Below, one piece after another: positions 720 to 47,407 of a stretch of DNA of 56,400 nucleotides (its first letter is position 1; each line of letters opens with the position of its first letter). The notes under the pieces were generated by a model, which did no database searches, was not told the DNA's origin, and saw only the letters and a program-made list of their open reading frames with translations. The stretch is taken from assembly GCA_964602465.1 (NCBI GenBank), contig CAZRQQ010000002.1, forward strand, positions 1 through 56,400. The letters are read 5' to 3'. The DNA comes from an uncultured Candidatus Saccharibacteria bacterium (GTDB lineage: Bacteria; Patescibacteriota; Minisyncoccia; Phycocordibacterales; UBA9973). Both the position numbers and the translations under genes were made by a program.

Positions 720-2861
720 ATGAACCGAGAGTATTCACTCGAAAAAACACGAAACTTTGGGATTATCGCCCACATCGACGCTGGGAAGACCACTACTTCA
801 GAACGCGTCCTCTACTACACCGGCATGTCACACAAAATCGGTGAAGTACACGATGGTGAGACAACCACCGACTGGATGGAGCAGGAGCGCGAACGTGGTA
901 TCACGATTACTGCTGCTGCAGTGTCGTGTACCTGGATCCCAACGTATGCCAATGGTGACAAATCCAAGCGCTACGCGTTTAACATCATCGATACTCCGGG
1001 TCACATCGACTTTACGGTGGAAGTGAAGCGCTCGCTTCGTGTGCTCGACGGTGCAGTCGTCGTCTTTGATGGTGTTGCAGGTGTGGAGCCACAATCAGAA
1101 ACCAACTGGCGCTATGCTGACGAAGCAAATGTGCCTCGTATCTGTTTCGTCAACAAACTCGACCGTACTGGTGCATCATTTGAGCATTCATATAAGACGA
1201 TCCTTGACCGCCTTTCGAAGAAAGCAGTGCGCTATCAGATCCCAATCGGACTTGAAGACAAGCACGAAGGGGTGATCGATCTCCTGCAGATGAAGGCATA
1301 CTACTTTGAGGGCGACATGGGTAACAAGGTCGTGGAAAAGGAAGTACCCGCAGAGTATATGGACGATGCCAAAAAGTATCGTGCAGAGCTCATTGAGCGC
1401 ATTGTCGAAAACGATGAAGCAGCAATGAACGCATATCTTGAAGGTACGGAGCCAAGTCTTGAAGATCTCAAAAAACTCATGCGTAAGGCAGTGATCGCAA
1501 ACCAGATCTTCCCCGTGTTTGCAGGAAGTGCGCTCAAAAACAAAGGTGTACAGCTCGTGCTCGACGCAGTGGTGGACTATCTCCCTGCGCCAACAGATAT
1601 TAAGGCGGTGACTGGAGTACACCCTGATACCGAAGAGCCGCTTGAGCGTCATGCATCTGATAGTGAGCCGTTTTCTGCACTTGCATTTAAGAGCATGAAC
1701 GATCCGTTTGTCGGACAGCTTGTTTTCTTCCGTGTGTATTCAGGTACGGTTGAATCAGGATCATACGTCTACAATCCTCGCACTGGCAACAAAGAACGCC
1801 TCTCTCGTATCGTGCGTATGCAGGCTGATCAGCGACAGGAAATCAAGAAAGTGTTTGCGGGAGAAATCGCTGCAGCGGTGGGGCTTAAAGAGGTGAAAAC
1901 ATCCGACACACTCTGTGATGAGACAAACCCGATCCAGCTCGATCGTATCAAGTTCCCAGAACCAGTGATCAACCTTCGTATCGAACCAAAGACCAAGGCT
2001 GACCAAGAAAAGATGGGTCTTGCGCTCAATCGTCTCGCCGATGAAGATCCAACGTTTAAGGTATCTACTGATCCTGAAACTGAAGAAACGATCATTGCAG
2101 GTATGGGAGAACTCCACCTCGAAATTATCGTGGATCGTATGAAGCGTGAGTTTAATGTAGAAGCAAACGTGGGCAAGCCGCAAGTGGCATACCGCGAAAC
2201 CATCACTGCTGAAGCGCAGGCAGAAGGCAAGTACATCAAGCAGTCCGGAGGTAAGGGTAACTACGGACATGTGAAAATCAAGATCAAGCCAATGGATCAG
2301 ACTGTTGATCCAAAGGATCTTCCCAAGAACGTCAAGCGCGATGGATTCTTTGAATTCATCAACAACATCAAGGGAGGTGCGATCCCGGGTGAATACATTG
2401 CGCCGATCGAAAAGGGTCTCAGAGAAGGACTTGATCGCGGTGTGGTCGCAGGCTTCAAAATGGAAAACGTCTCAGTGGATCTCTACGATGGATCATTCCA
2501 CGAAGTCGACTCAAACGAAATGGCCTTCAAGATCGCCGCATCTATGGCGCTCCAAGATGCTGCAAAGGCTGCAAAGCCGGTCATTCTTGAGCCGATGATG
2601 AAGGTAGAAGTGGTGACTCCAGAGAAATTCATGGGTGATGTGACTGGCTCACTTTCATCTCGCCGAGGTCTTATCGAAGGTATGGAAACTCGCGGTATGA
2701 ACCAAGTGGTCAACGCCGTCGTACCACTCTCAGAAATGTTTGGCTACATGACCTCACTTCGTTCTATGACCGAAGGCCGTGCTGGATTTACGATGGAATT
2801 CTTGAGATACGATATAGTACCTCAAAATGTCGCCGATACTATCATTAAGTCACGCGCCTAA
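720..2861 (+). CDS. fusA: elongation factor G
   Basis: N-terminal GTPase motifs AHIDAGKTT and DTPGHIDF. 713 aa with EF-G domain architecture throughout. Confidence 0.95.
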   Translation: MNREYSLEKTRNFGIIAHIDAGKTTTSERVLYYTGMSHKIGEVHDGETTTDWMEQERERGITITAAAVSCTWIPTYANGDKSKRYAFNIIDTPGHIDFTVEVKRSLRVLDGAVVVFDGVAGVEPQSETNWRYADEANVPRICFVNKLDRTGASFEHSYKTILDRLSKKAVRYQIPIGLEDKHEGVIDLLQMKAYYFEGDMGNKVVEKEVPAEYMDDAKKYRAELIERIVENDEAAMNAYLEGTEPSLEDLKKLMRKAVIANQIFPVFAGSALKNKGVQLVLDAVVDYLPAPTDIKAVTGVHPDTEEPLERHASDSEPFSALAFKSMNDPFVGQLVFFRVYSGTVESGSYVYNPRTGNKERLSRIVRMQADQRQEIKKVFAGEIAAAVGLKEVKTSDTLCDETNPIQLDRIKFPEPVINLRIEPKTKADQEKMGLALNRLADEDPTFKVSTDPETEETIIAGMGELHLEIIVDRMKREFNVEANVGKPQVAYRETITAEAQAEGKYIKQSGGKGNYGHVKIKIKPMDQTVDPKDLPKNVKRDGFFEFINNIKGGAIPGEYIAPIEKGLREGLDRGVVAGFKMENVSVDLYDGSFHEVDSNEMAFKIAASMALQDAAKAAKPVILEPMMKVEVVTPEKFMGDVTGSLSSRRGLIEGMETRGMNQVVNAVVPLSEMFGYMTSLRSMTEGRAGFTMEFLRYDIVPQNVADTIIKSRA

Positions 2862-2901
2862 GCAAAACGCCTGCCCTGCGAAGCTTTGGCGTAGTGGGGT
2901 G

Positions 2902-2931
2902 GCAGATACAATCATCAAATCAAGAGCGTAA
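2902..2931 (+). repeat. synonymous duplicate of the last 9 codons of fusA (ADTIIKSRA-stop)
   Basis: gca gat aca atc atc aaa tca aga gcg taa encodes the same peptide as fusA 2832-2861. It differs at 10 nt, all synonymous. Confidence 0.7.
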
Positions 2932-2945
2932 TACTCTCACAAAAG

Positions 2946-2967
2946 ATCCCTGAAAGGGGATTTTTTG
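2946..2967 (+). terminator. rho-independent terminator after fusA
   Basis: atccc-tgaaag-gggat hairpin followed by TTTTTT. Confidence 0.6.
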
Positions 2968-2968
2968 A

Positions 2969-2996
2969 TTGACAAAAATATAAAACCTGATACAAT
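2969..2996 (+). promoter_or_regulatory. sigma70-like promoter (TTGACA-16-TACAAT) for cassette ORF 3021
   Basis: Consensus -35 and near-consensus -10 elements. A 23-nt block TTGACAAAAATATAAAA is shared with 10114-10142. Confidence 0.5.
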
Positions 2997-3020
2997 AAAG
3001 CAAAAGCACAAGTAACAATT

Positions 3021-3512
3021 ATGAAGGAAGCAGAATCACTACTGACCCTCCCCAGGGTTATTTTTAACTCGATTGAACGGGTATGGATTACCGTAGAAAT
3101 GTTTGAGCCTGAATTGCTTAAAAACCATATCAGGTTTCAAAAACAAACGATCAACCTTCATGGAACACTATTTACTATTGCAGTATTGGAACAACAGTAC
3201 GCATTTGGAAAAGGTGTTTATGAATGTCAGTCCTTATACGGATTTGAACTATCCAAAGAAGAAAGAACTGCAATGTTGTTTCATTACCATGGTATTAAGG
3301 CAAACACAGAGCGTCCGTTGGTCGATCAATTTAAATTTGAGATCTACAACAATGACGCAAAGTATCAGCCGCTGTATCGTTGTGTTGAAGATCTTGCACG
3401 GCGTGCAGTTCGTAGAATATTATCTACTACTGCTGACATAACTAAGTCAAATGGGGTAATCATTCCGCTTTCTTTATCGGTTAAAGAAAAAAGAGAATTA
3501 GTAGCTGTATAG
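3021..3512 (+). CDS. hypothetical protein (AT-rich cassette between fusA and tuf)
   Basis: 163-aa ORF with its own promoter and terminator. No recognisable domain. Confidence 0.5.
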   Translation: MKEAESLLTLPRVIFNSIERVWITVEMFEPELLKNHIRFQKQTINLHGTLFTIAVLEQQYAFGKGVYECQSLYGFELSKEERTAMLFHYHGIKANTERPLVDQFKFEIYNNDAKYQPLYRCVEDLARRAVRRILSTTADITKSNGVIIPLSLSVKEKRELVAV

Positions 3513-3525
3513 ACAGTTACTACAC

Positions 3526-3560
3526 AGCCAGGTATGCACTAACCATACCTGGCTTTTTTA
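3526..3560 (+). terminator. rho-independent terminator
   Basis: agccaggtatg...catacctggct 11-bp stem followed by TTTTTT. Confidence 0.6.
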
Positions 3561-3588
3561 TTGACAATCGCTTCCCAAATGCTATCAT
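3561..3588 (+). promoter_or_regulatory. promoter TTGACA-16-TATCAT upstream of tuf
   Basis: Consensus -35 immediately after the terminator. 16-nt spacer. Confidence 0.45.
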
Positions 3589-3645
3589 GAGGGACACGCA
3601 TTTTGCGTTGTTTTTGTTTGTTTATTAGCTTAGTTCAATATTTAT

Positions 3646-4836
3646 ATGGCAGATGTATTTAAGAGAGACAAGCCACACGTAAACGTTGGTACCATCGGTC
3701 ACGTTGACCACGGAAAGACCACACTTACGGCGGCAATCCTCCATGTTTTGAACATGAAGGGAAACCAGGTGAAGCTCAAGAAGGTTGATGAAATCGACGG
3801 AGCGCCTGAAGAAAAGGCACGTGGTATTACGATTAACATTTCGCACAACGAGTACGAAACGGAGAAGCGCCACTACGCGCACATCGACGCTCCAGGTCAC
3901 GCCGACTACATCAAGAACATGATTACCGGTGCGGCTCAGATGGACGGTGCAATCATTGTGGTTGCAGCGACTGATGGTGCAATGCCACAGACTCGTGAAC
4001 ACATCCTTCTTGCAAAGCAGGTGGGTGTACCAAAGATCATCGTGTTCCTCAACAAGTGCGACATGGTTGATGACAAGGATATGATCGACCTCGTGGAAGA
4101 AGAAATCCGTGAAATCCTCGCAAAACAAGGATTTGATAAGGATTGTCCTGTGATCCGTGGTTCAGGTCTTAAGGCTCTTGAGTCTACAAGTCTTGATGAT
4201 CCATGGGCACAGAAAGTTGTAGAGCTTGCAGATGCACTCGACACCTACATTCCAGAACCAGTTCGTGACCTCGACAAGCCATTCCTTATGCCGATCGAAG
4301 ACATCTTCTCAATCGAAGGACGTGGAACTGTTGTTACTGGTCGTATCGAACGCGGTATCGTCAAAGTTGGTGAAGATATCGAAATCGTCGGTATCAAGGA
4401 CACACAGAAAACTACCGTGACTGGTGTTGAAATGTTCAACAAGTCACTCGATCAGGGTCAGGCAGGTGACAACGCAGGTATTCTCCTCCGTGGTGTCAAG
4501 AAAGAAGACCTTACTCGTGGTCAGGTCCTTTGCAAACCTGGTTCAGTGAAGCCGCACACAGAATTCGAAGGTGAAGTCTACGTCCTCAAAAAGGAAGAAG
4601 GTGGACGTCACACTCCATTCGTCAACGGCTACAAGCCTCAGTTCTACGTTCGTACCACGGACGTGACTGGTGAAGTTACTCTCCCAGCCGGAACTGAAAT
4701 GGTTATGCCAGGTGACACCGTCAAAGTGACCGTGAAGCTCGTCGTACCAGTTGCGATGGAAGACCAGATGCGCTTTGCAATCCGTGAAGGTGGCCGCACA
4801 GTCGGTGCAGGTGTCGTAACCAAGATTATTGCGTAA
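3646..4836 (+). CDS. tuf: elongation factor Tu
   Basis: [13 protein letters not shown] and DAPGHADY motifs. 396 aa, canonical EF-Tu. Confidence 0.97.
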
Positions 4837-4925: not shown

Positions 4926-5285
4926 ATGGCAACAAAAACACCAGCAAAGAAATCAAAGGCAGCTGCCGCAGGAGACGTGCAATCAATGCTCCGTATCCGC
5001 GTACGCGCCTATGAAAACAAAATTCTTGATGCTTCGGTAAAGCAAATCGTTGATACTGCTATTCGCCACGATGCGATGGTACGTGGTCCGATCCCGCTTC
5101 CAACTGAAATCAAGAAGTACACCGTCAATCGCTCTCCGTTCATCTACAAAAACGCCCGTGAGCAATTTGAGATGCGCGTACACAAGCGATTGATCGACAT
5201 CGTCAATCCCGCACCCAAAGTCATCGAGGCTCTCACGAACCTCTCGATGCCAAGTGGTGTCGATATCGACGTGAAGATGATGTAG
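4926..5285 (+). CDS. rpsJ: 30S ribosomal protein S10
   Basis: IRVRAYE...LPTE...FTV.RSP signature. Position after tuf. Confidence 0.9.
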
Positions 5286-5305
5286 CCTTCGGCTCCATCA
5301 AACAA

Positions 5306-5334
5306 AAAACCTCCCAGATCTGGGAGGTTTTTTG
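5306..5334 (+). terminator. rho-independent terminator after rpsJ
   Basis: aaaacctccca-gatc-tgggaggtttt followed by a T-run. Confidence 0.65.
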
Positions 5335-5344
5335 CTTTAGAAAA

Positions 5345-5767
5345 ATGTTAAGTTTATATCTATACACTACTCAGATGAATAAAAAAGATTATGCAGTTTG
5401 GGGCACTATAAAAACAAATGTTCACAACAACAAAGAGCGACCGTTCTTCCACGAACGTGAAGTGTGGTTCTGCACACTTGGTGAAAATGTTGGATTTGAG
5501 CAAGATGGGAGAGGAGAAAACTACCTACGACCAGTGGTTGTTGTGAGGAAATTTAATAACGCAGTTTGTCTTGTTGTGCCTTTAACCAAAAATCAAAAGA
5601 AAGGAATACATTACTTTTCTTTTTCATATAAAGATGATCTCGTAAGTACTGCCATTCTTTCCCAGGTTCGTCTTATCGATGCAAAGCGTCTTGATTATAA
5701 ATCAGGATTTATTTCAGAAACTGATTTTGAAGCCCTAAAACAAAAACTCAAGCAATTGATTGCCTGA
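5345..5767 (+). CDS. PemK/MazF-fold toxin-like protein (start may be 5375)
   Basis: [31 protein letters not shown]...[13 protein letters not shown]...RLIDAKRL matches the Kid/PemK/MazF motif pattern (RPVL(I/V)V, VVPVTS). No antitoxin ORF is visible upstream. Confidence 0.5.
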
Positions 5768-5956
5768 GTTTTTGACTTTTTACCCCGAAGGGAGGGCCGA
5801 AGCCATTTGTACCAATAGTATATTCCTTCCATTAAAACAAGTCAATTTTCCCCGAAGGGAACGTGGGTAGTCCCAAATGCATATCTAGTATATCAAATTC
5901 CCCGAAAGTGGATTTTTTGTTTCCCCAAAAATTTTGTATAGTACACAAAAACATCT

Positions 5957-6169
5957 ATGCCAACAAAGAGACAGTTGTGGCAAAATTGGGCATCTGAATT
6001 TGAATATTTTAGAGGACAAGATCCCAGGACATATCAACCAAAAGGTCCAGTGTCAATGACGGGAGAAGTAATCGGTACTATCCAGATTAACCCGGCCACT
6101 GGAGATTTGAGGATCATTCCTACTCCTCCTTCCTCAACTGAAGAAGATTCCCAACCAATAAACCCCTAA
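5957..6169 (+). CDS. hypothetical small protein (C-terminus ...SQPINP)
   Basis: 70-aa ORF. Its C-terminus and the downstream ~60 bp are repeated at the next gene's end. Confidence 0.3.
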   Translation: MPTKRQLWQNWASEFEYFRGQDPRTYQPKGPVSMTGEVIGTIQINPATGDLRIIPTPPSSTEEDSQPINP

Positions 6170-6226
6170 CACCGGTTTGTTTTTGCTTTTGGAGAACGGT
6201 GTGCTAGGGTAAGTAAAAAATACACA

Positions 6227-6820
6227 ATGTTCAAATTATTCAAATTACATCAGTACGGTAATGACACGTACTATGCAATCATATGTAGCAACCCACTTTC
6301 AGAGGAGTTACTCCAGAAGCTGAAAGAGGTATTTGAAAAACTATCTTCTCTTTCGCAACAGGAATATGACCATGTATGGTTTAGGGTGTCGGGTTTTTTT
6401 AAAGAATTCACTGACAGCACCTGCAATGGCCTTGTTCATGAGACTTGCTCGCACCCACTCAATGAGGGAGCAAACTTTGATGAGGCAATACGTCCTTGGC
6501 AAAAATATGATTACGTAAACAAAAAGTACGTAGACTGGTATGGACCACTCATGACCAAAGGAGATCAGGATGAAGAGTTCAAAGCCGCGTACGAGTTTTC
6601 ATACCATGCATCTTTTCGGTCGTCACTACTTGCCGCAGGAGTTCCTGAAAAGGATATAGAAAAAAGTATTATCTTTGAGGTGACCGATTGCCGTGACTGC
6701 TACGAAACGAATCCATTTGATTTTGCACAGTGGGTACTAAAACAAACAAAATCGTTGGAATATATCAATGCACTACTTCTACCACCTGCTTCGCAGAGTA
6801 CTGAACCAACAAACCCTTAA
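6227..6820 (+). CDS. hypothetical protein (C-terminus ...STEPTNP)
   Basis: 197-aa ORF. No recognised domain. Confidence 0.45.
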   Translation: MFKLFKLHQYGNDTYYAIICSNPLSEELLQKLKEVFEKLSSLSQQEYDHVWFRVSGFFKEFTDSTCNGLVHETCSHPLNEGANFDEAIRPWQKYDYVNKKYVDWYGPLMTKGDQDEEFKAAYEFSYHASFRSSLLAAGVPEKDIEKSIIFEVTDCRDCYETNPFDFAQWVLKQTKSLEYINALLLPPASQSTEPTNP

Positions 6821-6872
6821 CACCGGTTTGTTTTTTGTTACAGAAATGGTAGGGTAAGGAAAACTCATTACA

Positions 6873-7394
6873 ATGAAAGATATATTAAAGAAATTACGTT
6901 TTCCGATGCTTATATCGGCACTACTCATCTGGCCGCTGTTTGATGACTTCTTTACCAATACATCGCCTGAACTTATAGACTTTGCCCAATCAAATCGTGG
7001 TATAGCACTACGAATGTTGCTTGCAACGATAGGTTTTTTGATCGCATGTTGGAGGCTGCTAGGTATAACCTCAAAGGTCACTCGAGTATTCCCCCGATAC
7101 CCTGCGTATCGGATAGGGTGGGATGATTTTACAGTAGTGATTATTCTTTTAGGATTCGCACTACTTGTTGCCTCACTGGTAGTAGTAGTGGCCCTACTTA
7201 AAGATGTATATTTCAATACCCATCCAGGAATAGTAATAGTTAAAATTGTATACCCTTGGGCAGTAGGCAGCTGCTATGTTCTTATTGGTATTTTTGAGTA
7301 TAAGTATCCATTACTTCTCAAACAGTACGAACGACCAAATATAAGCAGAAGAGAAATCGATAAGATCCTCAAATATAAAAGCATTTTGCGGTAA
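6873..7394 (+). CDS. hypothetical membrane protein
   Basis: 173 aa with several hydrophobic helices. Confidence 0.45.
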   Translation: MKDILKKLRFPMLISALLIWPLFDDFFTNTSPELIDFAQSNRGIALRMLLATIGFLIACWRLLGITSKVTRVFPRYPAYRIGWDDFTVVIILLGFALLVASLVVVVALLKDVYFNTHPGIVIVKIVYPWAVGSCYVLIGIFEYKYPLLLKQYERPNISRREIDKILKYKSILR

Positions 7395-7407
7395 CTGAGA
7401 AAGATAT

Positions 7408-7431
7408 ATCCCCTGAAACGGGGATTTTTTA
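7408..7431 (+). terminator. rho-independent terminator
   Basis: atcccc-tgaaac-ggggat followed by TTTTTT. Confidence 0.6.
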
Positions 7432-7438
7432 TACTCAC

Positions 7439-7466
7439 TTGCGCAATTTTTGATCCCGTGTATAAT
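7439..7466 (+). promoter_or_regulatory. promoter TTGCGC-16-TATAAT restarting the S10 operon at rplC
   Basis: Consensus -10 TATAAT. Located between the cassette terminator and rplC. Confidence 0.45.
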
Positions 7467-7522
7467 CTCGGGACATTTAAAAGATCCCAAAGATCCTAAA
7501 GAATGGTCCAATACCCGCCCAG

Positions 7523-10048: not shown

Positions 10049-10072
10049 TCTCCTCAAATACGAACTCACAAA

Positions 10073-10098
10073 AACCGCCCAAAAGGGTGGTTTTTGCT
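10073..10098 (+). terminator. rho-independent terminator after rplB
   Basis: aaccgccc-aaaa-gggtggtt followed by a T-run. Confidence 0.6.
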
Positions 10099-10113
10099 GC
10101 AATGGTTTTGATA

Positions 10114-10142
10114 TTGACAAAAATATAAAATTATGATATAAG
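10114..10142 (+). promoter_or_regulatory. promoter TTGACA-17-TATAAG; shares the TTGACAAAAATATAAAA block with 2969-2996
   Basis: Direct sequence identity of a 23-nt block to the fusA-tuf cassette promoter. Confidence 0.5.
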
Positions 10143-10184
10143 ATATGCAAATTCAAAATATTTTTTAACAACAAAAAAATCACA

Positions 10185-10778
10185 ATGATGACAGTATCAA
10201 GACAAACGGAAGAGTGGTTGAAACAAAATCAATTAACACTCTACAACCTCCTTAGTCTCGCCTTTGTGGCTCGAAGAACTTATGAGGATATGATGACAAA
10301 ACAAGCTCGGTGGCTCCCATCTTTACACCGACTTTTCATGGTAACTGAACTCGAAGAGTTTAGGCTTTCCGATGAAGAGTCTCAGAAGTACAACGATGAT
10401 AAGCAGACAAAGGCAAAAGTCCTTACTGATGAACTCATCGCAAGCTATCTGATAAAAGAGTGGAAGCAAACGGGCAAGTTGCCTGAAGAAAAGTATCTCC
10501 TTGTTACTGGAGAAAGAGCATCAAAGGATAAAACAGTCCTTACTGATCTCTTGATTAGAAAAATCAAAGGACAATCTGAAGATATTCCTATGGCTAAAAA
10601 TAATCAATCTACCAGCATCAACGGGGCCATTATTCCAACAGGTATTCTTAGTATTGCGACTACTGAAATAAAAACAGTACTGGAGTCTAAGAGTGGTGAT
10701 ATAGATCAATACCGAAAAACAAATGCAAAGGAATTAAAAAACCTTAGCATCATTCGTAGGAAATACTGCCACTATTAA
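10185..10778 (+). CDS. hypothetical protein (cassette in rplB-rpsS gap)
   Basis: 197-aa ORF, AT-rich. No recognisable domain. Confidence 0.5.
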   Translation: MMTVSRQTEEWLKQNQLTLYNLLSLAFVARRTYEDMMTKQARWLPSLHRLFMVTELEEFRLSDEESQKYNDDKQTKAKVLTDELIASYLIKEWKQTGKLPEEKYLLVTGERASKDKTVLTDLLIRKIKGQSEDIPMAKNNQSTSINGAIIPTGILSIATTEIKTVLESKSGDIDQYRKTNAKELKNLSIIRRKYCHY

Positions 10779-10803
10779 GGCGGGCGGTGAAGGATCTGCA
10801 ACT

Positions 10804-11451
10804 GTGAATATTACAGGAACATTTGGGCTCCATGCCATACAGGTACAAGTCAATACGGTACCAACCGCTCCTTTTATTTCAGGTCCAACATATGTTAAAC
10901 CTGGAGATACGTATTCTTTCGAGCTTCAGCGGCATACTCGTGACGATGTATATTGGGAAATTGAAAAAAACCCAACAGAAGTCGTTGGTATTCCAGATCT
11001 GCATGACAAAAAGAAGTATTCTGTAAAGGTTGAACCCGAGTGTAAGGATTGTGCTGTGACATTATATGTCAGGTTAAAAACCAACCGTTCGCTGGTCGCT
11101 CAAAAAAATATCAATATATTGGAAGCAGGTTCAAAAAAACAGCCTCCGATTATAAAGATAGGAAAGAAAGAGTATAGAATATCGAGCGGTGTGTATTTTC
11201 CTGAAACAGTTGCACAGGTTGATTATTTGTTCAACGAGTCGCAGGTATTGGAAATAGTTATCAATCCAATCCATCCCAGAATAAAAGACATGGGGTATAT
11301 GCAGTCCATGGACCATATATTGGCTGCAATAGCGAATGTTGCCATGATTGATCAGGTGTATGACAAACTGATTAATCCTAGTGAAGCACAAGGAATTGCC
11401 GAGAATTTTGTCGCTGTGATGAAAGACAGCTTGTTGAATAAAAAACAATAG
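10804..11451 (+). CDS. hypothetical protein (GTG start, possibly co-transcribed with 10185)
   Basis: 215-aa ORF directly downstream. No recognisable domain. Confidence 0.45.
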   Translation: MNITGTFGLHAIQVQVNTVPTAPFISGPTYVKPGDTYSFELQRHTRDDVYWEIEKNPTEVVGIPDLHDKKKYSVKVEPECKDCAVTLYVRLKTNRSLVAQKNINILEAGSKKQPPIIKIGKKEYRISSGVYFPETVAQVDYLFNESQVLEIVINPIHPRIKDMGYMQSMDHILAAIANVAMIDQVYDKLINPSEAQGIAENFVAVMKDSLLNKKQ

Positions 11452-11466
11452 ATTGCTCTTTACATC

Positions 11467-11494
11467 GAACCGGTTTCTACCGGTTCTTTTTATT
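11467..11494 (+). terminator. rho-independent terminator (gaaccggt-ttct-accggttc + T-run)
   Basis: 8-bp stem followed by TTTTTATTTT. Confidence 0.6.
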
Positions 11495-11522
11495 TTGACA
11501 AACCAATCCAGAGGAGTAGGAT
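11495..11522 (+). promoter_or_regulatory. cassette promoter TTGACA-16-TAGGAT
   Basis: Same architecture as 11980-12007 and 12560-12587. Confidence 0.45.
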
Positions 11523-11540
11523 AGGGAAAAAATTACAACT

Positions 11541-11942
11541 ATGAATATATCTGTTCATCCCCATGCGGGAAATCACACAGTCGACTCAGCGACGATCGTT
11601 GTGACAGGCAAAGATTTCAATATTATATTTAGAATCAACCCTCGAGGTGCCGTCGAAGTACAAAATGCTACAGATGTTTCTGCCACGATGCCATTTAAGG
11701 TACAACCAGATGGAAATATCGCACTTGATCCTAACTCTCGTGACCACGTAACTATCAAAGCCGGATTGGTGGGCATGGAAGGTGGGCCTGAGCTGAGTAT
11801 GACTGCACAAACATTGATGCAGCGACCTGTACATGTGATTACAAGTATAGGAAAGGGTACTCCGGTACTGAAAGTACGTGATGGAAGCGGTTGTTGGAAG
11901 CATGAAAACGTACTGGAATGGGCGCAAGAAGAGCGACAGTGA
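11541..11942 (+). CDS. hypothetical protein
   Basis: 133-aa ORF bracketed by a promoter and terminator. Confidence 0.45.
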   Translation: MNISVHPHAGNHTVDSATIVVTGKDFNIIFRINPRGAVEVQNATDVSATMPFKVQPDGNIALDPNSRDHVTIKAGLVGMEGGPELSMTAQTLMQRPVHVITSIGKGTPVLKVRDGSGCWKHENVLEWAQEERQ

Positions 11943-11949
11943 TACATCA

Positions 11950-11978
11950 AACTACTGAATAGTTCAGTAGTTTTTTAT
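11950..11978 (+). terminator. rho-independent terminator (aactactgaa-tag-ttcagtagtt + T-run)
   Basis: 10-bp perfect stem followed by TTTTTTATTTT. Confidence 0.65.
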
Positions 11979-11979
11979 T

Positions 11980-12007
11980 TTGACAAACTGGCGAGAGTGG
12001 GTAGTAT
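11980..12007 (+). promoter_or_regulatory. cassette promoter TTGACA-16-TAGTAT
   Basis: The TTG that the ORF track uses as the start of 11980..12525 is the -35 hexamer. Confidence 0.5.
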
Positions 12008-12027
12008 GGAGGAAAACATACCTTCAT

Positions 12028-12525
12028 ATGAAACAAAAAAGAAAAGTGCGTGCTGAAACATATCCAGCGAATGTGTTGGAAACCATCAACAAAAAGTTGA
12101 TCGACCGTATCTATACGGAAAAAAATAAATTTCTGGTAACACGTATAACAGATGCTTGTCTGGCTGCTTCGGCGAGTGATCTAAAGACACTCTTTGGGAG
12201 GCTTCCTGGTGCATATGACGGAGAGTTGATACATATCCTGTGCAATAAGCCTGGATCCAATCCTACTGGATTTCATATGGTCACCAAAACTCCCAAAAGG
12301 TTTGAGTTGCGGCGAGGTACCGAACTTATTGTCATACTTACTTCACCAAAAGAAATCTACAGTACTCATCATGAACCTGCTACAGCAAACGATATTGTTA
12401 TCAAAAAACAAACACGGTTCAAAAATCTGTTGAAGGAGCAGGGTATCAATCGAAGTAACTTCACCAGTTACGGCATCTTTTTGCTCGAACTGTGTTTTCA
12501 AACCAGGTCTTCCAAAATCGCATAA
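12028..12525 (+). CDS. hypothetical protein, paralog A (start revised to the ATG at 12028)
   Basis: In-frame ATG after a GGAGG. The internal block ACLAASASDLKTLFGRLPGAYDGELIHILC is similar to 12605 ALCLVAPPKELNKMFNGLRTYSASELAHILC. Confidence 0.5.
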   Translation: MKQKRKVRAETYPANVLETINKKLIDRIYTEKNKFLVTRITDACLAASASDLKTLFGRLPGAYDGELIHILCNKPGSNPTGFHMVTKTPKRFELRRGTELIVILTSPKEIYSTHHEPATANDIVIKKQTRFKNLLKEQGINRSNFTSYGIFLLELCFQTRSSKIA

Positions 12526-12531
12526 GTACAT

Positions 12532-12560
12532 AAACCCTTTTCAGTAGGGTTTATTTTTTT
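12532..12560 (+). terminator. rho-independent terminator (aaaccct-tttcagt-agggttt + T-run)
   Basis: Near-identical to the terminator at 600-623. Confidence 0.65.
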
Positions 12561-12587
12561 TGACAAAAAAGCCTAGGTGAGTAGTAT
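12560..12587 (+). promoter_or_regulatory. cassette promoter TTGACA-16-TAGTAT
   Basis: Third copy of the promoter architecture. Confidence 0.5.
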
Positions 12588-12604
12588 GAAGAAAAATTAA
12601 AAAC

Positions 12605-13159
12605 ATGAAAAGACCATATAAGTTTTTGCAGGACAAAGATTTCTCCTGTAGCGACATCACACCATCGTATGTTGATGCTATATACAAAGAAAGAGGTGAT
12701 GGTAATCTTGCTCAATACATCACAGCGCTATGTCTTGTTGCTCCACCGAAAGAACTCAATAAGATGTTTAATGGTTTACGAACGTATTCTGCAAGTGAGC
12801 TTGCGCACATTCTGTGTGCTGAAACTGCTTCGCGTGCGGTGAATAAATTTACAATACAAAACCGACAAGCAACTCAATTTGATCTATTTCGGAACGGCAG
12901 TCTCTTGAGAAGGTTTAAACAAAGGTGTCTCCACATTCCTACGTTTAATCAAAAAAAATCTGAACAAGAAATTGCACCCGAAGAATTTCAGAGCCTTCTT
13001 GTGCAACACGGTATTACTGAGAGTATTCTTGCTGAATGCTTGATTAAGCCAGTACCACCTCCGCCATATCTGTACAATATTCCCGAATGGAATGCTGTAG
13101 TTACTCCGGTGTACCGACCACTACGGCACATAGATCATCTCAAAGCCCTTTCAGCGTAA
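12605..13159 (+). CDS. hypothetical protein, paralog B of 12028..12525
   Basis: Shared motif ...ELxHILC... with the upstream gene. 184 aa. Confidence 0.5.
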   Translation: MKRPYKFLQDKDFSCSDITPSYVDAIYKERGDGNLAQYITALCLVAPPKELNKMFNGLRTYSASELAHILCAETASRAVNKFTIQNRQATQFDLFRNGSLLRRFKQRCLHIPTFNQKKSEQEIAPEEFQSLLVQHGITESILAECLIKPVPPPPYLYNIPEWNAVVTPVYRPLRHIDHLKALSA

Positions 13160-13187
13160 TGAAGGGGCTTTTGTTATACTTAGCGGT

Positions 13188-13580
13188 ATGGAAAAACTAT
13201 CAGAGCGAAAGCGGTTTTCGATCATTGCACGGGCGCGGAGTTTCCGGCATGCGCTTCGGGGGATTGGGATCATATTCAAGACGCAGCACAATGCGTGGAT
13301 CCATGGGGTTGCAGCGGTAGTAGTTATCGGACTTGGACTCTGGCTCAAGATTAGTGCAGGGGAATGGGCGGGGATCCTCCTATCGGTGACGAGTGTGCTT
13401 GCCGCAGAAGCATTCAATACTGCCGTAGAGATAGACATCGATCTCACGAGCCCTAATTATCACCCTTATGCGCGGGACACCAAGGACGTCGCCTCTGCTG
13501 CAGTGCTCATTACTGCTCTCGGAGCAGCGCTGGTTGGGATTGTGGTGTTTGTACCCAAGCTTTTCGTGCTATTTTCATAA
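13188..13580 (+). CDS. dgkA: diacylglycerol kinase / undecaprenol kinase family protein
   Basis: 130 aa with three TM helices. Conserved EAFNTAVE and SAAVLI motifs typical of DgkA. Confidence 0.7.
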   Translation: MEKLSERKRFSIIARARSFRHALRGIGIIFKTQHNAWIHGVAAVVVIGLGLWLKISAGEWAGILLSVTSVLAAEAFNTAVEIDIDLTSPNYHPYARDTKDVASAAVLITALGAALVGIVVFVPKLFVLFS

Positions 13581-13636
13581 ATCTTCGGCCGCAGTCGTTT
13601 AGATTTTCATCATACTAGTACGGGTAGTATACGTAC

Positions 13637-13900
13637 ATGTTTTACGTGTATTGTTTGGAAAGTAAGGTTCGAGAACGCGAACTGTATTTTGGATGCACTA
13701 CCGATTTGAAACGTAGATTGATTGAACATAATACTGGACTTAACAAATCCACAAAACGCTACATACCGTGGAAGCTTATTTACTATGAAGCCTGCCTATC
13801 GGAGGTTGATGCATACCGAAGGGAGGAATACCTAAAAACCAGTACCGGAAGGAGGATGTTTTCAAGGAGAATTAGTGGGTATTTGAGGGGCCGGATTTGA
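13637..13900 (+). CDS. GIY-YIG nuclease family protein (stand-alone, UPF0213-like)
   Basis: FYVYCL...YFGCTTDLKRRLIEHN is the GIY-YIG motif. 87 aa. Confidence 0.8.
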   Translation: MFYVYCLESKVRERELYFGCTTDLKRRLIEHNTGLNKSTKRYIPWKLIYYEACLSEVDAYRREEYLKTSTGRRMFSRRISGYLRGRI

Positions 13901-13977
13901 CCCGGAAGTGAGCCTTGGCATAGTACTCCGTACAGACGCGGCTTTGCCGCAATGCCAAGATCTACTTCCGGGTTGAC
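13900..13977 (+). repeat. structured 78-nt repeat element, copy 1 (hairpin module ending in -35 TTGAC)
   Basis: cccggaagtgagccttggcat...atgccaagatctacttccggg is a long imperfect inverted repeat enclosing gtac-tcc-gtac and gcggc-ttt-gccgc hairpins. About 95% identical to 20055-20134. Confidence 0.8.
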
Positions 13978-14000
13978 ATTGGCGCTCAATTTGCTACTAT
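13973..14000 (+). promoter_or_regulatory. promoter TTGACA-16-TACTAT for rpsS segment, overlapping the repeat's end
   Basis: -35 formed by the last bases of the repeat. Confidence 0.45.
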
Positions 14001-14038
14001 ACTCGCAGCTCAAAACGGGCTTCTTTTTTTCCTAGACT

Positions 14039-14383
14039 ATGACACGATCACTTGCAAAAGGTCCCTATATTGACGAAAAGCTCCTCAAGAAGATTGCGGG
14101 CAAACAACCACTCTCAGCAGGGGTTATCAAGACGTGGGCACGTGCAAGTCAGATCGCGCCTGAAATGGTCGGATTTACCTTTGGAGTCCACAATGGCCGC
14201 CAGCACCTCGAAGTCCTCGTTACCGAAGACATGGTAGGTCACCGCTTGGGAGAATTTAGTCCAACTCGCAAATTTACCCGCCACGGTGGAAAGATGCAGA
14301 AGGAAATCGACCAGAAGAAAAAGGAAGCTGAAATCACTGCTGCAAAGGCTGCAAAAGCGACTACTACCGAAGCTAAGAAATAA
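14039..14383 (+). CDS. rpsS: 30S ribosomal protein S19 (with Lys/Ala-rich C-terminal extension)
   Basis: GPYID..L...I...R.S.I.P.MVG....VHNG motif. Confidence 0.9.
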
Positions 14384-17354: not shown

Positions 17355-17365
17355 TACTACAAAAT

Positions 17366-17397
17366 AAAAATCACTCAATCGAGTGATTTTTATTTTT
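17366..17397 (+). terminator. rho-independent terminator after rplE
   Basis: aaaatcactc-aatc-gagtgatttt followed by a T-run. Confidence 0.65.
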
Positions 17398-17514
17398 TCC
17401 ACATCACGAGTAGGTGATTGGTGATAGCATGCTATACTATTCAGTATATTTTTGTACTGAGATATCCACTACTTTCTCTACTACACTATTTGTGTTGCGT
17501 GATATACTTTCAAG

Positions 17515-20055
17515 GTGAAATCTTTTAGTAGTTTTTTTAGTACACACAAACGAACACTTGCTGCACTTTTGTTTGGCCTCGCGTTTTCGGCGACTGTTGC
17601 GTTTGCAGTACCACCGAGTACTGAGTACAGTCCAGGCGAGACACTTGATCCAAACTGTGCGCCAGGAGATACCAACTGCGCGGTCATTCCCACCGCGTCT
17701 GCGATCGAAGATGGTGCAGTAGAAATCGCTGACTTTTCGGCAAGCGGCACACCGAGTGCAAGTACGTTTTTGCGTGGAGATAACACATGGGCAACTGTTT
17801 CGGGGAGCGGTACAGTCACGTCATTTGCATTTACCAACGGTGGCGGATTCACTGGCAACGTCAGCAACGCCACCTCAACTCCTACGCTCTCGCTTACACT
17901 TCAAGATGCTGTAGCTGATGGCTCAACTAAGGGTGCTGCAGCATTTACCGCAGCAGATTTTAATGCATCAAGTGGGCTCATTTCTATAGACTATACCAAC
18001 GGTCAGGCAGCATCAGGTTCGACCAAGGGATTCCTTACTTCTGCTGACTGGACGACGTTTAACGGTAAGGAAAGTGCACTCACGTTTTCTATTGGACTTA
18101 CACGTACTACTAATACAATCACCGTTAACACTACACAAAACATTGCCAAACTTTCAAACCTTACTTCAAACGGCTTTATTAAGACATCGGGGAGTGACGG
18201 TACGCTCAGTGTTGATACCAGTACCTATCTTACAGGTAACGAGGCTATTACTCTTTCGGGGGATATATCTGGGAGTGGTACTACCACAATCACAACTACG
18301 ATTGGATCTGGTAAAGTCACGAACACTATGCTTGCTGGCTCGATCACTGCAGCAAAACTCGTAGGAACCGATATTGCAACAGTGGGTACTATCGGTACGG
18401 GTACGTGGCAAGGCACGGTCGTGGGTGCAACCTACGGAGGTACTGGTGTAAACAATGGGTCAAACACGATAACACTTGCGGGCAATCTCGTGACGACTGG
18501 GGCGTTTAATACTACGTTTGCAGCAAGCGCGACGGGGACCTATACTCTCCCTAGTGCGACTTCGACGCTTTTGGCAAACAATCTCGGGATTAGTGGCGGG
18601 TCAACACTGGTCGGAGGAACAGGATCTGGTGAAAACCTCACACTTTCTTCAACGAGTAATGCAACTAAAGGTAAAATCATCTTCGGATCTGCCTCAGCGT
18701 ATGACCAAGTCAACGATCGATTTGGAATTGCACAGACCACCCCATTAGCAAGACTTCATGTGCAGCGTGATGCAATAGGTGCCACCCAAGATGATTCATA
18801 CGGTATCTTGTTGCAAAACTCAACGGCAGCAGCAGCGGGCGCACAGCAGTATTCACCATCGATCGTATTTGCAGGAAATGGATGGAAATCAAGTGCAACT
18901 GCAGCGAGTCAAGATGTACGGTTTCGTATTTATAATAGTCCTGTGCAAGGTGCGGGCTCCGCATCCGGGTTGTTGAATTTTGAGTCAGCACTTAATGGTG
19001 GTGCATACACCACGCTCATGACACTATCAAGTGCACAAGCATTGAGCTTAAACAGTGCCGGAACGATTTTTATTGGATCAGGTCTGGCTTTGACTAATGT
19101 TACCGCTCAAGTACCAACTGTATTTGGTGGCACTGCGGTGAGCTCATCACTTACACTTAAATCAACGAGCGGTGTCGGATCTTCGGACTTCATCCGTTTT
19201 CAGGTCGGCAACAACGGTGCAACTGAAGCAATGCGTATCATCACTTCTGGATTTGTGGGTATTGCCAATACTGCTCCTGGAGTCGCACTCCACATCGGTT
19301 CGTCGTCAACCACTGACGCTACAACACTTCTTCGTCTCCAAGACTCAAACTCTACCTGTAACTTCACTGCAGATTCTGGTGCGCCAACGTGTGGATCTGA
19401 CCGCACCCTCAAGAAAGATATCGAATCCATGGATAATGCCGACCTCCTTGCTCGGGTATCTGCACTCAATCCAGTGACCTATCGATGGCTTACTGATACT
19501 GATGATGCAAAACTCCAGCATGGGTTCATTGCACAAGAAGTAGAAGAACAATTCCCGGAGCTTGTGACCGAGAATGTCTGGGGTGATGGCACCATGCGCA
19601 AATTCCTCAATATTGGCGGTCTCATGCCGTATGCGATCGGTGCGATCAAGCAAATGAATCTCCAGATCGTTGGCATTGCAGATCTAGGCACAACCAACAC
19701 TTGGCGTGATAGCTTACTTGCATGGTTTGGAAATGCAGGCAACGGCATAGAGTCTTTCTTTAGTAAGAAGGTTACGACGAGCGAGCTTTGTGTAGGGGAC
19801 GAGACTGATCAGGTTTGTGTCACCAAAGATCAGCTTCGAACACTCTTGCAGCAGGGGGGAAGTGCATCAGTTGCGCCAATAGTGATTCCAGATCCAGTGC
19901 CAGAGGAGGCTACCGGAGAGACGCCTGAGGAGACACCGGTCGAAGAGACTGTGACCCCAGAACCAGAGGCTATAGAACCTACACCAGAGCCAGAACCGGC
20001 TCCAGAACCCACAGCCCCTGAGGCTCCGGCAGAAGCTCCTGCTCTTACCGAATAA
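17515..20055 (+). CDS. secreted tail-fibre-like surface protein with C-terminal intramolecular chaperone (peptidase S74-type) domain and Pro/Glu/Thr-rich tail
   Basis: N-terminal signal/anchor MKSF...AFSATVAFA. Long Gly/Ser/Thr-rich repetitive body. C-terminal TCGSDRTLKKDIESM...LNPVTYRW....HGFIAQEVEEQFPELV matches the endosialidase/tail-fibre autoprocessing chaperone domain. PEPEPAPEP tail. Confidence 0.7.
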   Translation: MKSFSSFFSTHKRTLAALLFGLAFSATVAFAVPPSTEYSPGETLDPNCAPGDTNCAVIPTASAIEDGAVEIADFSASGTPSASTFLRGDNTWATVSGSGTVTSFAFTNGGGFTGNVSNATSTPTLSLTLQDAVADGSTKGAAAFTAADFNASSGLISIDYTNGQAASGSTKGFLTSADWTTFNGKESALTFSIGLTRTTNTITVNTTQNIAKLSNLTSNGFIKTSGSDGTLSVDTSTYLTGNEAITLSGDISGSGTTTITTTIGSGKVTNTMLAGSITAAKLVGTDIATVGTIGTGTWQGTVVGATYGGTGVNNGSNTITLAGNLVTTGAFNTTFAASATGTYTLPSATSTLLANNLGISGGSTLVGGTGSGENLTLSSTSNATKGKIIFGSASAYDQVNDRFGIAQTTPLARLHVQRDAIGATQDDSYGILLQNSTAAAAGAQQYSPSIVFAGNGWKSSATAASQDVRFRIYNSPVQGAGSASGLLNFESALNGGAYTTLMTLSSAQALSLNSAGTIFIGSGLALTNVTAQVPTVFGGTAVSSSLTLKSTSGVGSSDFIRFQVGNNGATEAMRIITSGFVGIANTAPGVALHIGSSSTTDATTLLRLQDSNSTCNFTADSGAPTCGSDRTLKKDIESMDNADLLARVSALNPVTYRWLTDTDDAKLQHGFIAQEVEEQFPELVTENVWGDGTMRKFLNIGGLMPYAIGAIKQMNLQIVGIADLGTTNTWRDSLLAWFGNAGNGIESFFSKKVTTSELCVGDETDQVCVTKDQLRTLLQQGGSASVAPIVIPDPVPEEATGETPEETPVEETVTPEPEAIEPTPEPEPAPEPTAPEAPAEAPALTE

Positions 20056-20134
20056 CCCGGAAGTGAGCCTTGTGGCATAGTACTCCGTACAGACGCGGCT
20101 TCGTCGCAATGCCAAGATCTACTTCCGGGTTGAC
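20055..20134 (+). repeat. structured 80-nt repeat element, copy 2
   Basis: Direct repeat of 13900-13977 with a 2-nt insertion. The inner hairpin change gccgc to gtcgc keeps pairing through a G·U. Confidence 0.8.
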
Positions 20135-20158
20135 TCCGGGCGCATACTCTGATAGGAT
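20130..20158 (+). promoter_or_regulatory. promoter TTGACT-17-TAGGAT for rpsN segment, overlapping the repeat's end
   Basis: Same arrangement as copy 1. Confidence 0.4.
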
Positions 20159-20261
20159 AGGCGAGTCCTTTGGTAATCCGCACTTTTCTCTCTGAGCGAA
20201 CCTTTGTAAGGAAATTCAGAGAAATCAGTACGCGATATTCCAGAGAACATCCACAAATAGT

Positions 20262-35899: not shown

Positions 35900-36034
35900 G
35901 CCGATGATGTATATAATCTTTTATATCATCCACCCTTAGCTCCCCGCCTGCATCAGCTACGCGAAGCATTGCGGGCAGGAGTTGGTAGAGCGCCGAGCTT
36001 ACCGGCGAAGCGAGTGGTATACAGACAAACGAGT

Positions 36035-36108
36035 GGGAGTATAGCTCAGTTGGTTAGAGCACGGAGCTTATACCTCCGCGGTCGATGGTTCGAGTCCATC
36101 TACTCCCA
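36035..36108 (+). tRNA. tRNA-Ile (anticodon UAU)
   Basis: Cloverleaf with acceptor GGGAGTA/TACTCCC, D-arm GCTC..GAGC, anticodon stem CGGAG/CTCCG, loop CTTATAC, T-arm GATGG-TTCGAGT-CCATC. Discriminator A. Confidence 0.7.
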
Positions 36109-36188
36109 CCCGTTTGAATGTGATATCCGAGCGATGCCGGCTCCAAAGGATGACCTCGGTGGTCCAGGCTTTTGTCCATGCACACCCA

Positions 36189-40281: not shown

Positions 40282-40369
40282 GGAGATGTGTCAGAGTGGT
40301 CGAATGTGCCCCCTTGCTAAGGGGGTAGGTGTCAAAGCCTCATGGGTTCGAATCCCATCGTCTCCGCCA
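40282..40369 (+). tRNA. tRNA-Ser (anticodon GCU), CCA encoded
   Basis: Acceptor GGAGATG/CGTCTCC, anticodon arm CCCCC-TTGCTAA-GGGGG, long variable arm, T-arm ATGGG-TTCGAAT-CCCAT. 3' GCCA. Confidence 0.85.
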
Positions 40370-40398
40370 ACAACAGTTAGCACGACTTGCGTCGTTAT

Positions 40399-41570: not shown

Positions 41571-41716
41571 ATATAACCCATCTCGTGCTAGCACGAGATG
41601 GGTTCGAATCCCCAATACACCGCCATTGACAGCTAGCACGAGATGCTTAGTTTGTAAGTGTTTTTATTGAGTCAAAAATTGACCCACTTGAGACATCTGA
41701 ACTTTGTATAAATACT

Positions 41717-46948: not shown

Positions 46949-47407
46949 CTACTTATCCATAAGTATAATTTTTTTATTCGCCAAACAGATTTTACTCTTC
47001 AAGCACCCAAGCAATTCTCGTTTTTCAATATCGTCTCCTTCTTTCAGTATATACTTTGCGTATCCTCGTATATCAATATCAGGGATACTAATTTTTTCTT
47101 TAGTTCCTACTAGAAACTTTTGCATTTTAGAAAAGCGTTCAACATCTTCTTTTATCTTTTCTTTGATTTGGATCTCATTGAGATTTACATTTTCGATAAG
47201 TAATTGAAATTGCTTCAATAATTCTTTCTCTTCAATAGCACCACACTTACAATCTGGATCTCTGGCTCTTGTGCATCTATAGTAAACATAACGATGTACA
47301 TTTCCATTCTTCTGCTTCTTAAATTTCTCGTCAGCGGTGATGCCTGACTCGCACAGTCCGCAAGTCATCATTTTAGTGAAAGCAAATTCTTTGTTTTCAA
47401 CTCTCAA
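46949..47407 (-). pseudogene. truncated large serine recombinase (C-terminal zinc-ribbon + coiled-coil portion only)
   Basis: CGLCESGITADEKFKKQKNGNVHRYVYYRCTRARDPDCKCGAIEEKELL is the recombinase zinc beta-ribbon domain. The N-terminal resolvase and recombinase domains are absent. Confidence 0.6.

Follow-up and report, generated by a model that had tools for sequence, protein, structure and literature searches.

In the window analysed here (the whole 56,400-nt stretch of contig CAZRQQ010000002.1), the str/S10/spc region of a Paceibacterota-like bacterium of the candidate phyla radiation (CPR) runs from fusA, tuf and rpsJ through rplB, then from rpsS through rplE, then from rpsN through secY, adk and map; and a short, highly structured repeat occurs twice in it, each time behind an inserted gene and ahead of the promoter of rpsS or rpsN. 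The question raised by this locus is what that repeat is. A preliminary description had suggested that it could be a portable junction of terminator and promoter, a protein-binding site (for example for the adjacent GIY-YIG nuclease or a recombinase) or a small RNA. The comparisons reported below indicate that the repeat is probably a non-autonomous transposable element of Paceibacterota-type (CPR/Patescibacteria) bacteria, resembling the miniature inverted-repeat transposable elements (MITEs), which inserts at and duplicates the tetranucleotide TTGA and is tolerated in promoters; as such it is a new family within a known kind, the MITE-like elements.

Borders, target sites and empty sites of the repeat

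The two window copies, A and B (Table 1), agree in 70/74 aligned columns (94.6%), in keeping with the roughly 95% first estimated. Relative to copy A, copy B has two extra nucleotides, TG, inserted into stem P2 on its 5' side, and two substitutions in P4, T>C in the loop and C>T in the stem, the latter giving a G.T pair. A 29-mer from the 3' half of the element was found exactly twice in the window and in none of 100 shuffles, and repeat finding on the window returned the copy pair as family D3; the copy number is accordingly two per 56.4 kb. The coordinates first proposed located the element, but they took in one base of the left flank and the right-hand TTGAC. The element begins with CCCGGAAGTGAGCC... 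and ends with ...ACTTCCGGG, and its terminal inverted repeat, CCCGGAAGT/ACTTCCGGG, is perfect in 5/6 distinct copies and continues imperfectly through P2 to about 19-21 bp; an extra CCCGGAAGT at 46737 lies in a coding region. Across copies the element measures 72-78 nt, which is too short for protein coding, and it holds no open reading frame (ORF). The earlier observation that identity ends at the element borders was confirmed: the flanks of the window copies do not align. Since the flanks of copies A and B share no similarity, a segmental duplication was ruled out.

To compare these sites with those of relatives, operon loci were obtained via S19 homologues (about 30 contigs; loci outside the window are cited by L numbers). 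No copy was found by nhmmer in the relatives' operon loci L011-L035 and L054-L062, and a covariance-model search, which covered most of the loci L011-L057, gave the same result. In the relatives without the element, the promoters at rpsS and rpsN have the form TTGACA/T, a spacer of 16-17 nt, and TGnTAnnAT. Empty rpsS sites (L011, L022, L023, L026 and L058) read ..TTTGACA-N16-TG-n-TA(A/C/G)(G/T)AT and are followed by a conserved leader with a hairpin and T-run; occupied rpsS sites (the window and L007) read TTTGA/CCCGG...CCGGG/TTGACA, with spacer, -10 hexamer and leader as in the empty sites. L058 is 91.5% identical to L007 over S19-S3, and its rpsS site is empty and has no GIY-YIG gene. At rpsN, the sites without the element (L007, L011, L021, L057 and L058) read TTGAC(T/C)-N17-TG-n-TA(G/C)(G/T)AT.

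The rpoB promoter provides a second, independent pair of occupied and empty sites. The occupied site in L006 reads terminator-TTTTTTATTGA/element/TTGACA-17-TACACT, and the empty sites in L055 and L054, whose RpoB proteins are 87% and 85% identical to that of L006, read terminator-TTTTA-TTGACA-N17-TACACT/TATATT with the same leader and a single TTGACA. The flanks of the element are TTGA/TTGA at rpsS (window and L007) and at rpoB (L006), and TCAA/TCAA at rpoD (L010), where the element is inverted. TCAA...TCAA on the element strand of L010 is TTGA...TTGA on the rpoD promoter strand; the direct repeat is therefore independent of the orientation of the element, as a target duplication predicts. The junction base count of this inverted copy also ruled out a 5-bp TTGAC duplication, and the duplication is 4 bp. 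Because the same promoters are present in element-free relatives, these data indicate that the promoters are ancestral and that the -35 hexamer was split by insertion of the element, with TTGA duplicated on both sides.

These results bear directly on what had been claimed for the two junctions. Promoters do follow both copies, ahead of rpsS (TTGACA-16-TACTAT) and rpsN (TTGACT-17-TAGGAT), each with an upstream TG, and they are presumably functional. The proposal that the element carries or fuses a restart promoter was not upheld, because the rpsS and rpsN promoters and their leaders are ancestral and present in relatives without the element; likewise, a TTGAC -35 box does follow the 3' end of the element, but its TTGA is the target-site duplication of the host's own -35 box. 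A stop codon abuts the element in both window copies (TGA, 13898-13900; TAA, 20053-20055), but this is not conserved, since the GIY-YIG stop codon in L007 lies inside the element. The TGA of the window's GIY-YIG gene lies in the left TTGA repeat, and it must therefore already have overlapped the -35 box before the insertion. The apparent fusion of stop codon and promoter is explained by the TGA in the left TTGA and by the promoter restored by the right repeat.

Under the proposed mechanism, the element would insert at TTGA and duplicate those four bases, and in the window it would have landed in the -35 hexamer (TTGACA/T) of the pre-existing internal S10-spc promoters upstream of rpsS and rpsN. 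The right-hand TTGA, joined to the C(A/T), spacer and -10 hexamer that the insertion leaves intact, would regenerate an intact -35 box at the correct distance, so that the insertion would be tolerated, and this is the likely reason why such insertions survive. Mobilisation would occur in trans, by a transposase making 4-bp staggered cuts.

A second promoter-like site was noted at 13897-13924, where the left TTGA and the element sequence together give TTGACC-16-CATAGT with an upstream TG (9/12 matches), pointing into the element. The TTGACC-16-CATAGT sequence is the same in L006 and L007, and the -10-like hexamer is not retained in the L010 and L008 copies.

Fold and distribution of the element

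The long imperfect inverted repeat enclosing two small hairpins, as first described, was confirmed as a Y shape: an outer stem, P1, is followed by a small internal loop and a stem, P2, and these lead to a three-way junction with hairpins P3 and P4. Copy A folds as RNA at -42.7 kcal/mol (z -5.6) and copy B at -34.5 kcal/mol (z -2.6); the z values as single-stranded DNA (ssDNA) are -6.8 and -3.5, and the RNA fold of the opposite strand is nearly as stable. The same Y shape was obtained as ssDNA in 6/6 distinct copies (z -3.5 to -9.1). In a structural alignment of these six copies, which was made by hand and fitted to the structure, P1 is invariant in 5/6 copies, P2 shows exchanges of C-G to T-A and of A-T to G-C, and P3 (3-10 bp) and P4 (3-5 bp) have unrelated sequence and length in the L008 and L010 copies, yet all of their positions pair. 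Counted on that structure-fitted alignment (n=6), 96.6% of cells are paired, versus 23-44% when the partners are slid; 10 pairs in P2, P3 and P4 change on both sides; and 0/500 shuffles reach the observed covariation score. The structure thus covaries across genomes, as far as six copies in a hand-fitted alignment can tell. The preliminary description had taken a substitution to a G.U pair between the window copies as evidence of selection on structure; within the window, however, the argument is weak, because copy B also carries the 2-nt insertion that disrupts P2, and the window pair alone is insufficient to show such selection.

Several structural identities were examined and set aside. That the flanking TTGA might prolong the stem through G.U pairs was ruled out, as the flanks pair at 2/4 positions in L010 (TCAA/TCAA) and at 0-1/4 in L008. 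A tRNA-like origin was ruled out by ARAGORN, which finds nothing at the element. Rfam returned no family at gathering threshold at the element in a search of the whole window, and at E<=10 on 13600-14300 it returned only spurious microRNA models with E>1.

Further copies were searched for in species-representative genomes, metagenomes and viral contigs with a gapped pattern that fixes stem bases only, and they were found in other genomes and other contexts; the element is a discrete, portable and highly structured unit. Among 185,579 species representatives, one exact-pattern match was found in each of two genomes (L006 and L007), the strict pattern being one that misses diverged copies. L007 has the arrangement of the window, with DAGK, GIY-YIG, element and rpsS in that order; in L006, trmD, a small ORF and an ordinary terminator are followed by the element, then by TTGACA-17-TACACT and rpoB. 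The copies in L006 and L007 are identical, though they occupy different loci in different genomes; compared with copy A they show 5 differences, each at an unpaired position. In the metagenomic contig L010, the element is inverted relative to a sigma-70 (rpoD) gene and its TTGACA box, and in the metagenomic contig L008 a diverged head-to-tail tandem pair with a 3-nt spacer lies within a type IV pilin ORF, in its 5' part.

With a period of 81 nt (27 codons), the tandem copies in L008 (5131-5297) keep the reading frame of the pilin ORF (5081-5818) and contain no stop codon. This puts the start of the pilin's N-terminal methylation motif, G/FTLIE, at residue ~71, and the cleavage-site glycine is encoded by the GGG that ends the second copy.

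A pattern match in the metagenomic contig L009 scored 27 bits with the model and was omitted as doubtful, because it lies in a CTTCCG-rich repeat region and has a different internal architecture. Two full-element patterns gave 0 matches in viral contigs; a half-site pattern gave 18 matches there, in which only the seeded 19-mer agrees, and these were attributed to chance. No blastn match was found in plasmid and phage collections.

Taken together, the small size, the lack of an ORF, the terminal repeats, the 4-bp target duplication, the empty sites, the occurrence in both orientations, the patchy spread and the identical copies at separate loci of two genomes identify the element as MITE-like. 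Copy B looks older or rearranged, with ATAA on its left, an insertion in its stem and a G.T pair in P4; this state could come from a transposase-mediated adjacent rearrangement or from simple decay.

Other explanations and known systems

Several observations weigh against a transposable element. No transposase and no longer element with the same ends was found in the window; among the window ORFs scanned, Pfam shows no transposase and only a recombinase zinc-ribbon fragment at 46949-47407. The copy number is very low, with two copies in 56 kb and, by the strict pattern, one exact match in each of two other genomes. The left flank of copy B is not TTGA (ATAA/TTGA), and the L008 pair has only approximate flank repeats (TTTA/TTTC). 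The inner hairpins covary, which a transposase reading only the terminal repeats would not require. Finally, when the window is compared with L007, the element at the rpsS site is identical at 67/72 positions, against 69-78% identity for the neighbouring genes (DAGK 77%, GIY-YIG 69%, S19 78%; the promoter-leader region is at 79%). This identity is too high for a neutral relic of one old insertion, and it therefore points either to independent recent hits on the same TTGA or to selection on the element.

Alternatively, the element could be kept for a host function: the upstream transcript could carry it at its 3' end as a structured RNA (a stabiliser, a processing site or an insulator that separates the inserted genes from the ribosomal sub-operons), or it could be a protein-binding module at the -35 box that co-regulates core expression genes. 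The 93% conservation between the window and L007, against 69-78% in flanking genes and with all 5 differences unpaired, is consistent with this, as are the covariation of P2, P3 and P4 (10 two-sided pair changes, and pairing far above the slid controls) and the placement of all simple insertions at the rpsS, rpsN, rpoB and rpoD promoters when only 6/55 intergenic TTGA sites in the window are promoter-like. However, L058, close as it is to L007, and every other relative examined lack the element at the same promoters; in L010 the element and the gene behind it have opposite orientations; the predicted transcription start is downstream of the element, which hence lies outside the downstream mRNA; the element has no T-run and hence no terminator signature; copy B has stem-damaging changes; and the alignment behind the covariation count was hand-fitted to the structure. 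A host function is therefore considered unlikely, although it is compatible with mobility, since the element may have spread by transposition and then been domesticated. A small RNA is unsupported: the element has no Rfam match, the L010 copy is inverted with respect to its neighbouring gene, and close relatives lack the element. A ribosomal-protein leader or other described RNA was rejected on the Rfam result, on the same inversion, on the absence from relatives and on the position of the element upstream of the -35 box. The proposed terminator-promoter junction did not hold either: there is no T-run at either window copy, where the stem is followed by TTGAC(A/T), and no terminator-like site appeared there in a scan. 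Ordinary terminators serve the other window junctions and the rpsN junction in relatives, and in L006 an ordinary terminator precedes the element; an intrinsic terminator was rejected on these grounds.

Mobility as ssDNA, through an HUH/Y1-type enzyme of the kind that moves IS200/IS605-derived or REP/RAYT-like elements, would make the left TTGA the target, the right TTGA the cleavage site and the hairpins the recognised structures. The Y fold is conserved and covarying as ssDNA in the six distinct copies, the flanking tetranucleotide is specific, L008 holds a head-to-tail tandem pair with a 3-nt spacer, and Y1_Tnp genes occur in related Parcubacteria loci (e.g. L026 3170-3856), all of which such a route would accommodate. 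It is nevertheless improbable, because elements of the IS200/IS605 types lack terminal inverted repeats and have a fixed orientation, whereas this element has a 9-bp perfect repeat and is inverted in L010 with respect to the promoter strand that bears TTGA, so that it falls outside the IS200/IS605 and REP groups; in addition, no Y1 gene is present among the window ORFs scanned against Pfam, and the Y1_Tnp gene of L026 accompanies a different repeat family. A recognition or homing site of the GIY-YIG nuclease (or, grouped with it, the recent segmental duplication excluded above) is a very improbable source. Copy A and the L007 copy do directly follow a small GIY-YIG ORF, and L058 lacks both the gene and the element; but copy B and the L006, L010 and L008 copies have no GIY-YIG neighbour, so that the suggested tie to this gene fails at 4/5 sites (rpsN, rpoB, rpoD and the pilin gene), and the TTGA repeats bracket only the 72-nt element and not the gene. 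An integron-type attC site at the 3' end of inserted cassettes would fit the imperfect palindrome, whose length is attC-like, its position directly after an inserted gene's stop codon in either window copy, and its two stems, unpaired spacer and variable branched tip. This explanation is scarcely credible, since the outer arms are CCCGGAAGT/ACTTCCGGG and not the complementary cores RYYYAAC/GTTRRRY, and the TTGA flanks are direct, not complementary; the core-site comparison contradicts the attC identity. Furthermore, the TTGA duplication and the empty sites with a single TTGA are unlike cassette integration, the copies ahead of rpoB and rpoD are single and not in cassette arrays, and no integrase is present among the window ORFs scanned against Pfam.

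If the repeat is a MITE-like element, as preferred here, its distribution over sites calls for comment. All simple insertions lie in -35 boxes at the rpsS, rpsN, rpoB and rpoD promoters, and only 6/55 intergenic TTGA sites in the window are in contexts of TTGAC plus a -10 hexamer; against this background, 4/4 insertions in promoter contexts are not random. The preference could come from an extended TTGAC(A/T) target, from survivorship in a genome that is 92% coding, or from real targeting of promoters. The last is offered tentatively, as an idea with a modest chance of being right: the element would be a promoter-homing mini-transposon that actively selects the -35 hexamers of strong sigma-70-type core-gene promoters (rpsS, possibly in two independent hits, rpsN, rpoB and rpoD). 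Homing could rely on TTGAC(A/T) as an extended target, or on contacts of the element with RNA polymerase or sigma bound at the promoter; the Y fold would serve either as an intermediate of transposition in ssDNA form or as a regulatory or RNA module common to these operons, linking them in the streamlined genomes of CPR bacteria. If true, the targeting of ribosomal and RNA-polymerase gene promoters would be a rare bacterial case of promoter-directed transposition and a handle on promoter architecture in unculturable organisms.

Bacterial MITEs such as the Correia elements of Neisseria (CREE/NEMIS) and the pneumococcal RUP are about 100-155 bp long, use a TA target and occur in tens to hundreds of copies per genome. 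The element shares with them its small size, its lack of coding capacity, its terminal inverted repeats and its short, sequence-specific target duplication, as well as an intergenic position beside promoters, a long hairpin if transcribed and presence or absence at orthologous sites. It differs in its length of 72-78 bp, its 4-bp TTGA target, its one or two copies per contig and its branched Y fold with two covarying inner hairpins; moreover, it brings no promoter hexamers and splits a host -35 box that it restores by duplication. In the hybrid promoters generated by insertion sequences (IS), the IS end supplies the -35 box. There too the end of a mobile element lies directly against the -35 position of a promoter, but in the present case the host's own -35 box was there before the insertion, and no base of the hexamer comes from the element. 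The palindromic mini-elements of Rickettsia (RPE) can sit in frame in protein-coding genes, as the stop-free L008 pair does in the pilin ORF; however, the window copies are intergenic, have no sequence relation to RPE and belong to another host phylum. Repetitive extragenic palindromes (REP), the mosaic elements built from them (BIME) with their RAYT transposases, and IS200/IS605-derived elements are likewise hairpin repeats with a specific flanking tetranucleotide, sometimes in tandem, but they have no long terminal inverted repeats or true duplications and keep a fixed orientation, whereas the element has terminal inverted repeats, both orientations and direct flank repeats. Like an integron attC site, it forms an imperfect palindrome where an inserted ORF ends, with two stems, an unpaired spacer and a variable tip; it differs in the absence of RYYYAAC/GTTRRRY cores, in its target duplication and in having neither cassette arrays nor an integrase.

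Mobile elements in the tiny, gene-dense genomes of CPR/Patescibacteria have hardly been described, and a full-text literature search for MITEs in these bacteria returned nothing relevant. The element suggests how a transposon can persist in a genome in which hardly a base is without function, by splitting a -35 box that its own target duplication repairs. For annotation, such repeats should not be read as terminators, leaders or sRNA genes, and the internal promoters of the broken-up S10-spc operon are the host's own.

Neighbouring genes and further features of the region

The features of the locus are collected in Table 1.

Table 1. Positions of the element copies, their parts and the adjoining host features in the window
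Feature	Position	Strand	Remarks
Element copy A	13901-13972	.	72 nt; borders set by the terminal repeats
Copy A, terminal inverted repeat P1	13901-13909/13964-13972		9 bp, perfect, CCCGGAAGT
Copy A, stem P2	13912-13921/13952-13961
Copy A, hairpin P3	13923-13933
Copy A, hairpin P4	13938-13950
Copy A, left TTGA of target-site duplication	13897-13900	+	includes the TGA stop of the GIY-YIG ORF
Copy A, right TTGA of target-site duplication	13973-13976	+	bases 1-4 of the rpsS -35 hexamer TTGACA (13973-13978)
Element copy B	20056-20129	.	74 nt; degenerate copy; TG insertion in 5' arm of P2, G.T in P4
Copy B, left flank ATAA	20052-20055		holds the TAA stop codon of the 846-aa ORF
Copy B, right flank TTGA	20130-20133
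GIY-YIG ORF	13637-13900	+	87 aa; neighbour of copy A, outside the element
846-aa ORF with Peptidase_S74 domain	17515-20055	+	neighbour of copy B, outside the element
Ancestral rpsS promoter	13973-14000	+	TTGACA, 16 nt, TG-n-TACTAT; conserved in relatives without the element
Ancestral rpsN promoter	20130-20158	+	TTGACT, 17 nt, TG-n-TAGGAT; same promoter without the element in L007, L011, L021, L057 and L058
rpsS leader	14007-14038	+	small hairpin and T7 directly before ATG; belongs to the host gene, not to the element

The string of str/S10/spc genes is broken four times by inserted, mostly low-GC genes (2860-3650, 5285-7520, 10050-13900 and 17355-20055), which include a PemK toxin gene, six ORFs after rplB and the gene of the 846-aa Peptidase_S74 protein. 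The insert junctions that were read have TTGAC-type promoters and terminators of their own, and the junctions other than those with copies A and B consist of an ordinary intrinsic terminator with a TTGACA box directly behind it. Positions 2961 and 10106 share a near-identical promoter repeat, TTTTGATATTGACAAAAATATAAAA; repeated terminators were seen at 582/12514 and 6153/6804. Most relatives have an ORF of ~200-230 aa at the position of the 846-aa ORF; L057 has large genes there, one of them a homologue with 41% identity that occupies the equivalent operon position, yet the element is absent. An exact look-up of the 846-aa protein returned nothing on record, and exact-protein look-ups of the GIY-YIG protein and S19 returned only contigs identical to the window at the locus (same strain).

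Both ribosomal promoters are followed by leaders with features of their own. Between the rpsS promoter and the ATG, a hairpin of 5-7 bp, GGAGCTC-AAAC-GGAGCTTC, followed by T7, looks like a terminator or attenuator; the hairpin and T7 are present in the window, L007, L011, L022, L026 and L058, with or without the element. Upstream of the rpsS promoter, L058 carries an unrelated 66-nt palindrome (ACATATTCATACCGAC...GTCGGTATAGGTATGT, 3349-3414) between it and the DAGK gene, in the place taken by the GIY-YIG gene and the element in L007 and the window. The rpsN leader of ~100 nt (..GAGTCCTTTGGTAATCC..TCTCTCTG..GATATTCC..) is conserved in the window (20159-20261), L007 (5560-5654), L011, L021, L057 and L058, and is a candidate ribosomal-protein leader in this lineage, without a match in Rfam.

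A different MITE family was observed in the Parcubacteria GW2011_GWA1_43_21 group (L026-L033). Its members are ~105 nt long, have the ends CCCGTTAGAAACCGCGATCGC and are flanked by ATGAA (e.g. L026 10365-10484 and 11921-12165); they are present or absent between rpsS and rplV depending on the strain and occur in tandem between rplP and rpmC, and the Y1_Tnp gene of L026 mentioned above lies near this family. In L054 (4589-7807) and L056 (10001-16182), rpoB and rpoC were called as several consecutive fragments, which could reflect frameshifts, assembly errors or real splits.

Elsewhere in the window, a match to LOOT RNA (RF03000) was found on the + strand at 56300-56400, at 51.7 bits against a gathering threshold of 46.4, and is cut by the window end. 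A tRNA-Ile gene with the anticodon UAU (ARAGORN 'tat') lies at 36034-36111. The 3' end of a tRNA-Ser(GCU) gene and the sequence downstream of it (40342-40396) are repeated 1.25 kb further on (41598-41652) at 75% identity, bracketing two ORFs, and the two repeats may be the attachment (att) pair of a small integrated islet. Within a 2028-aa ORF (48580-54666), four direct repeats of ~48 nt (..AACGGTGA(T/C)GG..) lie at 50044-50882 and indicate a repeated protein module.

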